From Octopus sinensis (taxonomy: Eukaryota), in contig NW_021832963.1 of the NCBI RefSeq assembly GCF_006345805.1, positions 1 to 31,480 on the forward strand: 31,480 nucleotides of DNA. The letters run 5' to 3'. Of the stretch, positions 9,885 to 31,480 are shown in pieces. The notes under the pieces were generated by a model. That model had not been told where the DNA came from and did no database searches. It worked only from the letters and a program-made list of their open reading frames with translations. Each line of letters opens with the position of its first letter. Position 1 is the stretch's first letter. Both the position numbers and the translations under genes were made by a program.

Positions 9885-10085
9885 CATGCATACATATATA
9901 TATATATATTATATATATATACATACCTATATATTTATACATATATGTATATACGTATATATATGTGCGTTGTGTATAAATAGTGAAGGTGTGTATATAT
10001 ACATATATATATGTATACGTGATATATATGTGTGTGTGTATATGTGTATGCATGTATGTATGCATGCATGTATGTGTATATATAT
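9530..10085. repeat. Compound (CATA)n/(TG)n/(TA)n microsatellites
   Basis: Visible directly. Confidence 0.9.
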
Positions 10086-10932
10086 TTCCAAAAATGAGCT
10101 TAAAGCGATATGTTATCCTTATCCTAGCGGTTACCGTGTTTCCTCTCAAATCGGTTTCAATGCCGACTAACCGCAATGGTGTTCTTGTGGTTCCCGGGCT
10201 AACAATAAGTTGCTCAGCTCTGGTAACTTATCTCCTTGGGGAAACGCGAGTCTCCACTTCAGGACAGCATATTTTCGGTAGGGTTTTATCAATGAAAAGG
10301 AGAAATGAGATTTTGCACATCCATAATTGTATTTCACAGTTATTTACATCATCTTTATACGACCTACACATGTTTCAAATGTAGCAACTACAGACTTTGA
10401 AACGGCTGTAGGTGATGACGTTAGGAAGCTGCAACGATAATGATGTTAAGATGCATATCAAACAGTGCGCAGTCACTGCAGTTCAAGCACGTGTAGATAC
10501 CGTAAAGATGCTGGAAAAATCTGTGAAATTGAATAGTATAATAAGCAAAACAAATGAAAATATACGAAAAACGATTTTCGTTGAAAATAGCGATTTTGAC
10601 GTCTATACCTAACGTATAGGCTGTCCACTTTTAGTGGTGAGTCCTCTAAATTTTGTATATACATACCTACATACAATATTATATAATATAATATATATAT
10701 ATACACATACATACATAATACATACATACATACATACATACATACATACATACATACATAATACATACATAATCATACATACATACATATATATATATAT
10801 ATAAGATATATATATATCCTATATATTATATATACACATACATACATACATACATACATACATTGTTAAACTCACACACATTTTTTTCTGCGGTTTTTTT
10901 CTTTTTTCTCCGTTTATTTTCGTTCTTAATTC

Positions 10933-10965
10933 TTTCTGTCGAAGAGCATAGGCTCAAACGTCAAA
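10933..10965 (+). ncRNA. Minimal hammerhead-like motif, damaged (G12 missing)
   Basis: ttt-CUGUCGA-A-GAGC-AUAG-GCUC-(no G)AAAC-GUC-aaa. Confidence 0.5.
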
Positions 10966-11078
10966 TAATAACTTTTCCTACACCTCCGTTGTCTTCTGTT
11001 TTCTGTAAAATTTTGAACTATATATATATAGTTCAAATTTACAGAAAACAGAAGACAACGGCAGGTGTAGGAAAAGTA

Positions 11079-11112
11079 TTTGACGTTTCGAGCCTATGCT
11101 CTTCGACAGAAA
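11079..11112 (-). ncRNA. Minimal type I hammerhead-like motif (Penelope pLTR / retrozyme type), core variant A6U
   Basis: Minus strand: uuu-CUGUCGA-A-GAGC-AUAG-GCUC-GAAAC-GUC-aaa. Palindromic ACGU stem III, as in the dimer-forming minimal hammerheads of Penelope-like elements. Confidence 0.7.
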
Positions 11113-11209
11113 GAATTAAGAACGAAAATAAACGGAGAAAAAGAAAAACCGCAGAAAAAACTGTGTGGAGTTTAACAATGTATGTATGTATGTATGTATT
11201 ATGTATGTA

Positions 11210-11244
<35 letters not shown>

Positions 11245-11380
11245 TGTATGTAGGTATGTATATACAAAATTTAGAGGACTGACCACTAAAAGTGGACAGC
11301 CTATACGCTAGGTATAGACGTCAAAATCGCTATTTTCAACGAAAATCGTTTTTCGTATATTTTCATTTGTTTTGCTTATT

Positions 11381-11458
11381 TGTAGTGGTGATAGTGGTGC
11401 CGGTTGTGGTTGTAGTAGATGTGACTGTGACAGTAGTAGTAGTGGCAGCAGCAGTAAC

Positions 11459-11497
<39 letters not shown>

Positions 11498-11499
11498 AA

Positions 11500-11533
<34 letters not shown>

Positions 11534-11805
11534 TGTAGTGGCAGCAGCAGTGACAGCAGCAGCAGTAGTAGTAGTAGTAGTAGTAGTAGCAACAGCAGCA
11601 ACAGTAGCGGCGGTGGTGGTTGTGGTGGTGGTGGTTGTGGTGGTGGTGGTTGTAGTGGTGGTGGTGTAGTGGTGGTGGCGGCGGTGGTGGTTGTGGTGGT
11701 GGTGGTGGTGGTGGTAGTGATGGTTGTGGTGGTTGTTGTAGTGGTTGTGGTGGTGGTGGTGGTGGTGGTGGTGGTGGTGGTGGTGGCGGCGGCTGCGGCG
11801 GTGGT
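11381..11805. repeat. Compound (GTA)n/(GCA)n/(GTG)n trinucleotide array
   Basis: Visible directly; begins right where the palindrome's right arm stops. Confidence 0.95.
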
Positions 11806-12034: not shown

Positions 12035-12618
12035 ATTTCAAATTTTTGCCACAAGGGTAGTTTGGGGGAGGTGAAGGTGAGTCGATGACATCGACCCCAG
12101 TGTTCAACTGGTACTCAATTTATCGACCTCGAAAGATGAAAAAAGCAAAGCCGACCGCGGCGGAATTTGAACTCAGAACGTAGCGAGAGGTAAAATACCG
12201 CTAGGCATTTCGTCTAGCGTGGTAGCGTTTCTTTCCTATTCTAGGCACAAGGGCCGAAATTTTGGCGGGGAGGGGTGGCCAGTCGATTAGATCGACCCCA
12301 GTACGCAACTGGTAGTTAATTTATCGACCCCTAAAGGATGAAAGGCAAAGTCGACCTCGGTGGAATTTGAACTCAGAACGTAACGGCAGACGAAATACCT
12401 ATTTCTTTACTACCCACATGTGGCTAAACACAGAGAGGACAAACGGATTAAGTCGATTATATCGACCCCAGTGCGTAACTGGTGCTTAATTTATCGACCC
12501 CGAAAGGATGAAAGGCAAAGTCGACCTCGGCGGAATTTGAACTCAGAACATGAAGACAGACGAAATATCGCTAAGCATTTCGCCAGGCGTGCTACCGATT
12601 CTGCCAGCTCACAGCCTT
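12035..12618 (-). mobile_element. Tandem trimer of SINE family A (full copy about 12618-12400, head-truncated copies 12399-12232 and about 12231-12035)
   Basis: Three GGAATTTGAACTCAGAAC B-box complements; tail-to-body junctions at 12399/12400 and about 12231. Confidence 0.9.
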
Positions 12619-12749
12619 CAACATCGCAAATAATGACAACTAGAACAAACACAATATCAACAACAACAACAACAACAACAATAGCAGTAGCATGAATATA
12701 CAGGAGGACACAATACGACAAGACTACGAAATAATAAGAATAAAAGACC

Positions 12750-14687: not shown

Positions 14688-17050
14688 TTAGAGAGAGTGA
14701 AATAGTAGTATGACAGATTGAATGAGAAATAGTTTGAGAGAAAATATTTTCCTATCCTTCCTTAATACCTATCTCTTTACTACCCACAAGGGGCTAAACA
14801 CAGAGGGGACAAACAAGGACAGACAAACGGATTAAGTCGATTATATCGACCCCAGTGCGTAACTGGTAGTTAATTTATCGACCCCGAAAGGATGAAAGGC
14901 AAAGTCGACCTCGGCGGAATTTGAACTCAGAACGTAGATGCAGATGAAATACCTATTTCTTTACTACCCACAAGGGGCTAAACACAGAGAGGACAAACAA
15001 GGACAGACAAACGGATTGAGTCGATTATATCGACCCCAGTGCGTAACTGGTAGTTAATTTATCGACCCCGAAAGGATGAAAGGCAAAGTCGACCTCGGCG
15101 GAATTTGAACTCAGAACGTAACAGCAGACGAAATACGGCTACGCATTTCGCCCAGCGTGCTAACAGTTCTGCCAGCTCGCCGCCTTATTCCTCCTTAATA
15201 CCGGTTCCCATATGCTATTTATATCTGCACTCGGTCTACTAAGGAGGTTATTGTGTCCTAGCATATGTGCTGCTTCTTTTAGTTTTCGTATTTTTCAGTG
15301 GTGTTCTCTGTCTATTATTTTAAGTTCATCCCACAGGGGGAGATGGTCTCCATTTTTCCATACATGTTAAGCTATACTCGATTTATCAATATCTCCCCGT
15401 GTCACAGCTTTGCGATGTTCCTCTACCGTTATTTTGAGGGGGCTGCATGTTTCGCCTTTATATAACCTACCACAGCTGCATGGGATGGAGTACACGCAGT
15501 TTTTGGTCATATTCTCTTCTATTGATGGAGACATTTGCGAAGTGTTGTATTACTCTTGAATACTGTCCTGATGTCATATGAACCACATATCTTCTGTATC
15601 TTTTCGGAGAGGTCTTTCACATAGGGTAGACAGACTGTGAACAGTTTATTGGTTTCATCCTCTCTTTTCTTCATAATTTGAGTAGATAGTATGTTTTGGG
15701 GGTAGTTGTTGCTTAATAGGTTATTGCTGAACTTGATCATTTCTTCGTGGTGGATATCACGATCGCTACTTATATTGTTTGCTCGATGTTTTAGGCACCG
15801 AGCAGTTCCTCTCTTTACACTGTATGGATAGTGAGAATTGAAGTTAAGGTATCGTCCGGTGAAGGTCGGCTTGCGGTATACGGATGTCCTGAATCCATAC
15901 TTTGTGCATATTATTAATATGTCCAGGAATGCTAGCTGATTGTCGTTTTCCTTTTCCATTGTGAACTGTAAGGCTGGCTTTATTGTGTTCACATGATCTA
16001 ACAGCACTTGTACATCTTCCTGGTGGGGCCAGAGAATAAAGGTGTCATCAACATATCGCAGCCGTAGGGTTGGTTTTAGTGGTGTTGATCCTAAAGCCAA
16101 ATTCTCAAAGTATTCCATGTATATATTGGCTGTTATCGATGATAATCCCGAACCCATAGCTAAACCCGCTTCTTGTCAATATATATCAGTATCCATCCTG
16201 AAATAGGTAGTTTCTACACAGAAGGTCAACATTTCCAGCAAGTTTCTTATTGGTATACTAGTGCGTTCTTTTAGATGGGTGTCCGTCACTAACTGTTCTT
16301 GAATCACCGATAGTCCTTCAACAGTTGGGACTTTGGTGAACAGGTTTATCACATCTAGACTCACCATCTGGTTGGATTCAATGGGGGTATCCTTGATCAA
16401 TTCTGTGAAGTGGGTAGAATTCTTCACGTACGATATTGACTTTCCTGCTAATGGACTGCCACAAGGAAGCGGCTCAGTGGATGACATGCTGAACCTCAAC
16501 AGCTCACGATAGGTGTGAATGGAATACAATCCTTGTGAATCTTAGGCAGACCGTACATGTGTGGTAGTTTACTGTAGTGTTGAGTCAGTTGTCTGTATTT
16601 CATTGGTGTAAAATGATCCTCGTTCTTGATCAAGATCTGTGACAACTTCCTCTCTGTTTTCAAAGTAGGCTCTTTCTTTCATTTGCTGTAGCTACCATCA
16701 CTTATAAGACTTGCCAACTTTTCAAAGTAGTCAGACTTGTTCATCACCACTGTAGTATTTCCCTTGCCCGCTGGAAGTATTATGATGGAATTGTCAATCT
16801 GTAATCTTTTGATAGCGAACTTTTCTTCATTAGTGATATTTGGTTTGGGAAATTTCACTTTTCCCAGTACCTGTCTCACTTTCCACCTTAGTTCATCTCC
16901 CTGAGCTTTTGGTATATTTACGGTTATCTCTTCAATAGGGGCTATTATATCCAAATATAGAATGCGCTTCGTGGTTGTTGCAAAGTTGAGACCTTTGTTC
17001 AGTACTGCTTCTTCAGAGCTTTCTAGATATCGGCTACTTACATTAATTAC
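14688..17050 (-). mobile_element. Penelope-like retroelement (Penelope/Poseidon type), pseudogenised RT + GIY-YIG ORF
   Basis: Manual translation: VINVSSRYL..EEAVLNKGLNFA (N-terminus), ILPAGKGNTTVVMN, MYGLPKIHK..P..PIVS, VSLDVINLFTKVP, MGSGLSSITANIYME, RYVDDTF, FLD, YRKPTFTGRYLNFNSHYP, LPYVKDLSEKI, then NCVYSIPCSCGRLYKGET...EEH...IA*HVW...RKLKEA (GIY-YIG). Several stops and frameshifts. With the SINE removed, the frame reads WEPVLRKDRK... to TAA at 14688-14690. Confidence 0.95.
14770..15185 (-). mobile_element. Young SINE family A dimer inserted at the 3' end of the Penelope ORF, with a 17-bp TSD
   Basis: Full copy 15185-14954 plus head-truncated copy 14953-14770, nearly identical. TSD tatccttccttaatacc (14753-14769) versus tattcctccttaatacc (15186-15202), 15/17. 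Confidence 0.95.
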
Positions 17051-30905: not shown

Positions 30906-31348
30906 CGTGTGTACGGTTTCAGTTATTGTCGGGTTTGGTTTTTGTGTGTTTGTTTTATGTGCACGTCTGTCTGTGTACAGTTTAGCAGCACTTTTACAAA
31001 TGAAACTGTTCTAATTGGTCACAGAATTTGGCACAAGGAATGCAAAGATTCGGGAAGGAAAAGAGAAGGAGAGAAAGACGTGGAGGAGGAGGTGGTAGAA
31101 ACGAGACAGAAATATAAAAATACCCGTACACATATGCACGCGCCTTTGTGTGTATGTATGTAAACCATTCTTTTTAAATATTAGTAAATATATACTCTAC
31201 TAAAATTTTTGGACGCTTCAACTGCAGGCGAAATTGCTTATATAAACGTGTGTGTATATCGGTGTCTCTGCATACACACACACACACATATAAACACACA
31301 CACACACACACACACATAACTACATATTATATATATATATATATATAT

Positions 31349-31480
31349 GGGGAGAATTCGCAAAATAAAAAGACGAAGACAGTGTGTGTAGACAACAAAC
31401 AGGTATTAGTATACTCTCGGGAAGGGAAAAAGTCTTTAACGTTTCGAGCCTACGATCCTCCACAGAAAGGAACACAGAAA
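31349..31480 (-). mobile_element. Hammerhead-bearing short element (same family as the palindrome inner arms), running off the window end; 3' end abuts (TA)n
   Basis: Minus 31469-31434: CUUU-CUGUGGA-G-GAUC-GUAG-GCUC-GAAAC-GUU-AAAG. Downstream gacttttt...tgtcttc similar to 10971-11018. Confidence 0.7.

Follow-up and report, generated by a model that had tools for sequence, protein, structure and literature searches.

The window analysed here (31,480 nt from Octopus sinensis) is the whole of a small unplaced contig in an assembly of 2.72 Gb. It carries a spacerless palindrome that is probably a real, young and small fold-back inversion of stacked repeat ends, in the less common polarity. With moderate confidence, we regard a one-off fold-back at the DNA level, primed by (TA)n and giving a single inverted duplication of about 420 bases, as the best explanation of its structure.

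Results

Geometry of the palindrome

The left side of the structure was aligned to the reverse complement of the right side. This alignment gave an inverted repeat of 841 nt (10540-11380), in agreement with the initial annotation, which had described a spacerless palindrome of about 840 bp at 10541 to 11379. The symmetry centre was found where it had been placed, at 11024/11025 inside (TA)6, with perfect pairing over the first 13 pairs outwards, and the right end is abrupt as described, the trinucleotide array starting at 11381. Reading inwards, the left arm consists of a family-2 end, a microsatellite and a family-1 end, followed by (TA)6 and then the mirror of the same units; the outer ends are co-terminal and the flanks are unrelated to each other (Table 1). 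The arms are unequal (485 bp on the left, 356 bp on the right), the microsatellite on the left being longer by about 124 bases. The predicted fold of the 841 nt reaches -567.6 kcal/mol (z -49 against 20 shuffles).

Table 1. Features of the palindrome and its flanks (positions in the window).
Feature	Position	Strand	Remarks
Left flank, old dispersed repeat (family 3)	10084-10529		internal inversion near 10395; 72-76% matches at many loci
Filler of 10 nt at left junction	10530-10539		matches neither family 3 nor family 2
Left outer arm, family-2 fragment	10540-10655	+	inverted internal piece 10540-10577, then the family 3' end; truncated at 10540
Left (TA)n/(ATAC)n tract	10656-10862	+	about 124 bases longer than its mirror
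Left inner arm, 5'-truncated family-1 copy	10863-11018	+	40-bp internal deletion; 6-7 one-sided indels
Left minimal type I hammerhead-like motif	10931-10967	+	U6; G12 missing in the assembly (probably an error)
(TA)6	11019-11030		usual 3' tail or target of family 1; symmetry centre
Right inner arm, family-1 copy	11031-11179	-	same 40-bp deletion; family state at every polarisable site
Right minimal type I hammerhead-like motif	11077-11114	-	features compared with available text of PMC4209133
Right microsatellite tract	11180-11264	-	
Right outer arm, family-2 fragment	11265-11380	-	truncated at the same base as the left arm
Right flank, degenerate trinucleotide array	11381-11786		AGT/GCA/GGT

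A single duplication

Comparison of the sequences shows that the two arms arose by one duplication and not by two insertions. A 46-nt haplotype of family 2 occurs at only these two places in 2.72 Gb, even when up to two mismatches are allowed, and both inner arms share a 40-bp internal deletion; a deletion like it is seen in L008, while most relatives retain the 40 bp. Two element ends would also be brought together if family 1 had inserted twice, independently and in opposite orientations, into one (TA)n target, and neighbours of this kind do arise across one (TA)n (L084, L078, L087); in L063 the 44-bp stub differs from its partner. We nevertheless consider two insertions extremely improbable here, since the private deletion, the microsatellite and the private family-2 haplotype, which lies outside the element, are common to both arms, and since family-1 members are only 79-88% alike. 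The 46-nt search and the inner-arm comparison (40 scored of 1441 candidates) revealed no donor locus with the same composite elsewhere in the assembly, which favours a local DNA event.

The outer arms differ by two substitutions (10612 and 10639) and no indel in 122 columns, whereas 6-7 indels are confined to the left inner arm, a rate of about 4-5 per 100 bases. All six differences between the arms that could be polarised are derived in the left arm. The polarisable differences of the inner arms comprise no substitution and two indels in 58 columns, as compared to 115 substitutions and one indel in 1389 columns among paralogs. Since this indel-only pattern is unlike the divergence of the family, and since its rate resembles that of frame shifts in the (TA)n tracts of the contig (1.6-5.5 per 100), the indels of the left inner arm, including the "lost G12" of its motif, are probably consensus sequencing errors. 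The left inner arm is thus likely under-polished; outside the microsatellite, the two arms are in truth likely to be nearly identical. If the rate that follows from the available part of PMC13282606 holds here, a count of 3-4 substitutions in about 280 bp would put the age of the event at roughly 2 million years at most.

The repeat families in the arms and flanks

The inner arm belongs to a short, dispersed, high-copy element (family 1; 1441 first-look candidates in the assembly). Among the 40 candidates scored, the best paralogs show 79-88% identity over parts only, and no third close copy was detected. The 3' end of the family is fixed and followed by TATATA (766 exact matches in the assembly, 4 for the reversed control), and its 5' truncation is variable, with 64-699 nt of common upstream sequence in 28 copies. 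This combination of a fixed 3' end at TA repeats with a variable 5' extent is, in sequence terms, the pattern of a retroposed element. GIY-YIG elements are numerous in the genome (149 matches, 5029 candidates). No RT or GIY-YIG frame linked to family 1 was found in the 8 kb upstream of six copies, and family 1 did not form the sense-strand 3' end in the 30 best of the 149 GIY-YIG loci; family 1 therefore appears to behave like a non-autonomous Penelope derivative, an assignment that is provisional. A second, more diverged copy lies at about 31345-31480 (minus strand), cut by the end of the contig; its core also has U6. Apparently intact GIY-YIG-bearing frames were seen in L084 (883 aa), in L085 (780 aa) and in several frames of 781 aa, and downstream of many long GIY-YIG frames there are hammerhead-like cores that begin with U3, in part of the U3-A8 type.

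The outer arm (about 120 bp) is a fragment of another high-copy repeat, family 2 (1675 first-look candidates), cut in both arms at the same base, past which its relatives continue. The initial annotation had proposed that about 135 bp of non-ribozyme host flank were duplicated together with the element; the copy does reach beyond the element, but what it contains is the 3' end of a repeat family and not host DNA. Copies of family 2 form head-to-head inverted structures with variable inversion points, often with an extension of about 80 bp at one end, and the longer ones carry a canonical type I hammerhead core of their own (3 of 18 loci: L037 at about 1342-1425 on the plus strand, L045 and L050), in which helix III is palindromic and the helix II region long. 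An interpretation of the outer arm as a MITE was rejected in view of the inversion points that vary between copies, the one-sided extension and the canonical core in the longer copies, although head-to-head copies of this family could be mistaken for such elements.

On the left flank, relatives of family 3 continue with shared sequence where the window copy breaks off, at 10530-10539. The filler at this junction was considered as the start of the right-hand array, but the resemblance is not significant, 9% of random 10-mers scoring as well. The outer flanks are a broken family-3 copy and a trinucleotide array, with no clear target-site duplication at the outer ends. No second (haplotig or allelic) copy of the flanks above 86% was found among the scored candidates (40 of 193 and 37 of 37), short SINE ends aside. 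Elsewhere in the window, SINE-like units are tandem and clustered at 14764-15136 and 12040-12620 (184-bp period, 96%).

The palindrome as a real locus or an assembly artefact

The initial annotation had itself pointed to an artefact of a fold-back read or of assembly as an alternative. Such a structure could in principle come from one long read that is chimeric or folded back on itself, or from a single-copy locus whose two haplotypes were assembled in opposite orientations, and the window is indeed a whole small unplaced contig whose left inner arm bears one-sided indels at a rate like that of the (TA)n frame shifts. One-sided errors would, however, also be expected in a real palindrome if the polishing reads all map to the better arm. 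Moreover, a fold-back read mirrors its own flank, while the flanks here are unrelated, and a single such read would mirror the length of the repeat, while the two microsatellites differ by 124 bp.

Contigs of the public runs X1 to X4 were placed on positions 10930-11430, a stretch that ends short of the left junction. A 65-nt contig of X1 falls on 11278-11342 with a single difference, C>T at 11308, which is the variant of the left arm; the left outer arm, otherwise clean, thus has one of its variants in X1, on a haplotype private to the locus, although X1 may be the assembly's own sample. The nearest paralogs differ at three sites or more (closest of 27 pieces covering most of the stretch). 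At 11281 the contig has the right-arm letter, and no matching C-version is listed; X1 shows only one version of 11308, as a single-copy locus would also give. No contig piece of the four runs spans 10930-11430. Cover is absent in all four at 10964-10980, 11134-11269 (of which 11171-11269 was skipped as repeat) and 11389-11430, gaps that carry no weight. In X1 to X3, depth in the bin 10998-11014 (about 33, 38 and 8) with none in 10981-10997 suggests short pieces across a tail-to-tail centre; these are not locus-specific; L063 is a possible source, and so are fold-backs formed in the library between ends of the family, whose depth is about 100,000-fold, and the pieces were not counted as support. 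Taken with the unrelated flanks and the unequal microsatellites, the X1 contig makes an artefact rather unlikely, and we consider the palindrome likely to be real.

The hammerhead-like motifs

The inner arms had been described as hammerhead-bearing. Their motifs do have a minimal type I-like architecture, but this is not canonical. The right motif has the core CUGUCGA, an extra A, a 4-bp helix II, GAAA, a palindromic ACGU and a helix I with one mismatch. The core is CUGUCGA in both arms, and departs from the CUGANGA conserved in minimal type I hammerheads of PLEs. Among 28 family-1 relatives (27 parsed, 24 of them with U, and L018 read by eye), position 6 is U in 25, C in two and A in one (L026). 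The right arm and the relatives have the GAAA box, the G10.1-C11.1 pair, an extra base after A9, the palindromic 15.2-16.2 and the cleavage triplet. Helix I can form 5 bp in most relatives and is mismatched in both arms. As compared to the minimal type I hammerheads of metazoan PLEs, to the extent that these are covered by the available text of PMC4209133, the extra base between 9 and 10.1, the G10.1-C11.1 pair, the palindromic 15.2-16.2 and the predominance of solo copies are alike, as a short helix I may be, while U instead of A at position 6 across family 1 and a helix II of only 4 bp are different. Close pairs of minimal hammerheads on opposite strands are noted for Schistosoma in the same text.

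A left motif without G12 and a right one retaining GAAAC, as initially annotated, are true of the assembly, but the left loss, seen in none of the 28 relatives, is probably the sequencing error discussed above. The motif folds are no better than those of shuffled sequences (z 0.38 and -0.57). A scan of Rfam at E<=1 showed no hammerhead family among the best 150 matches listed (10 weaker ones were obtained besides); miRNA matches at the palindrome centre were below the gathering score and reflect the hairpin. The sequence suggests that the motif at this locus is likely inactive, a passenger in the duplication.

It had also been proposed that the locus could give rise to ambisense, self-cleaving hairpin RNA. 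The structural part of this proposal agrees with the predicted fold, since any transcript, from either strand, would form a long rod and have a single sense motif within its 5' half. The functional part found no support, and we consider it very improbable: the core has U6, helix I is weakened by its mismatch, the motif folds are not stable, and the rod pairs each motif with its complement, in which it would be buried. According to the available text of PMC4209133, minimal motifs do not cleave as monomers and cleave at a low level as dimers, and the dimer fold is unavailable here because each strand has only one sense motif. In RNA runs, the share of sequence words present was 0.04-0.10.

Tail-to-tail junctions and palindromes in the genome

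A pattern search of the assembly for tail-to-tail junctions of family 1 retrieved only four other sites, as against at least 766 element ends. All are stubs of 10-44 bp that sit across (TA)5-9 and are bounded by more TA repeats, and none extends through the element into the flank. L063 has a 44-bp stub with three differences from its partner and a third scrap of 3' end downstream; L064 and L075 have stubs of about 10 bp. In L076, on a chromosome-scale scaffold, a perfect 28-bp fold-back copies the private letters of its partner, which indicates, on the evidence of these letters, the same kind of event in miniature. A fifth pattern match (L065) was rejected as a family-1 junction, being a palindrome with 53-bp arms inside a SINE (1473-1578). 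A control search for tail-to-tail junctions of family 2, which has no matching denominator, gave no match.

Near-spacerless inverted repeats are common around unrelated repeats: 26, seven of them selected by the query, were present in 25 of 66 three-kb loci. In many of them the outer ends have (TA)n, as is usual for the polarity of Penelope, and some consist of two opposed SINEs. The suggestion of the initial annotation that the element itself generates local inverted duplications is therefore not supported, the tail-to-tail junctions of family 1 being moreover rare and otherwise short. Near-perfect palindromes unrelated to family 1 occur about once per 11 kb in the loci fetched (L065 1473-1578, L004 485-751, L009 1335-1464, L020 821-1157 and L037 1609-1767). 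Copies of family 1 also lie antisense behind another element: at L084 and L078 behind the 3' end of a GIY-YIG element, at L087 behind a SINE; from their arrangement, these different elements tail-to-tail across one (TA)n appear to reflect shared targeting.

Discussion

The observations on which a fold-back reading is based are a single duplication, a centre in (TA)6, arms cut at the same base and unrelated flanks. A break or a cruciform cut at the (TA)n could have produced a 3' (TA)n end that would anneal to itself; synthesis primed in this way would then have run back over the same strand for as long as there was template, and the new end would have been joined to a second break, at the point where family 3 is broken off. 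Fold-back synthesis primed at (TA)n had been proposed initially, and it is retained as the best explanation, with a single duplication that extends beyond the element; of the element itself, only the (TA)n tail would contribute. The end of the copy lies a few bases at most from the point at which family 2 is truncated in the other arm. An in-place fold-back alone leaves these co-terminal ends unexplained; it requires in addition that synthesis stalled at the array or that a hairpin-capped fragment was captured. In yeast, short single-stranded DNA hairpins near a break are established primers of fold-back inversions (PMC7467729, available part). The inversions of yeast GCR described there are alike in being spacerless or short-loop inverted duplications on a short self-complementary centre and in needing a second junction for stability. 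The octopus locus differs from them in its very small size (about 420 bp), in being fixed or segregating in an animal assembly, in a hairpin derived from the TA tail of a retroelement and in a second junction without homology.

Alternatively, the palindrome could have been formed from RNA. A sense read-through transcript (family-2 fragment, microsatellite, family 1 and (UA)n end) would fold back and be copied to its 5' end by a Penelope-type RT, the hairpin then being integrated whole. The locus would in that case be a fossil of the predicted, rarely seen tail-to-tail product of Penelope RT self-priming, in which the (UA)n tail primed run-off copying and upstream sequence was carried along. 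Because of run-off copying, this route accounts for two arms that end at the same base and for two foreign flanks. It also agrees with a centre that is exactly the 3' tail of the element, with family-1 copies that share a fixed 3' end at (TA)n but vary at the 5' end, and with the many GIY-YIG elements of the genome. As far as the available text of PMC3846280 goes, a Penelope RT that self-primes on a sense read-through RNA would give the tail-to-tail arrangement, and in that of PMC11167929 a PLE protein nicks both strands of AT-rich DNA in vitro and extends them, ribozyme cleavage not being needed. Against it stand the other junctions, only four and all stubs, and the autonomous partner of family 1, which did not appear in the six upstream stretches or the 30 of 149 GIY-YIG loci. 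An origin from RNA is considered unlikely above all because a donor locus is missing from the assembly and a clear target-site duplication is lacking, and the DNA-level fold-back is preferred.

A relation to the inverted pLTR units of Penelope had been part of the initial annotation. In the available text of PMC8557442 and PMC3846280, most of these units have their copies head-to-head, the 3' ends pointing outward, and the arms are truncated to different extents. The locus resembles such units of endonuclease-positive Penelope-like elements in that a 5'-truncated element associated with (TA)n and bearing a hammerhead is present in inverted copies, but its 3' ends face inward across (TA)6, its arms are co-terminal and they include a microsatellite and a second family. 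The outer ends show neither a clear target-site duplication nor the (TA)n expected of Penelope units. Since the locus is tail-to-tail and the known units are head-to-head, the relation is not upheld. The locus also shares with non-LTR retrozymes, as presented in the available part of bioRxiv 10.64898/2026.07.22.740005, a short non-coding unit with a type I hammerhead and a proposed origin from PLE pLTRs. Retrozymes are head-to-tail tandem repeats with complete motifs, whereas the locus is an inverted pair of dispersed copies, and no head-to-tail tandem hammerhead units were found in it. In the accessible part of the literature we found no description of this locus, nor of tail-to-tail hammerhead palindromes beyond one sentence in PMC3846280.

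For ribozyme biology, interest may lie in a family of at least 766 copies that keeps a minimal hammerhead architecture with U at position 6. If the event took place at the DNA level, the locus is a further small fold-back inversion of low importance in a genome rich in repeats, and indicates that (TA)n tails of retroelements can nucleate such inversions. If instead it took place at the RNA level, (TA)n-tailed hammerhead elements would seed palindromes and templates for long dsRNA, and the four stubs (10-44 bp) would be aborted products. The locus would then provide direct evidence as to whether Penelope elements replicate by sense or antisense self-priming, as well as a route for 5' transduction.
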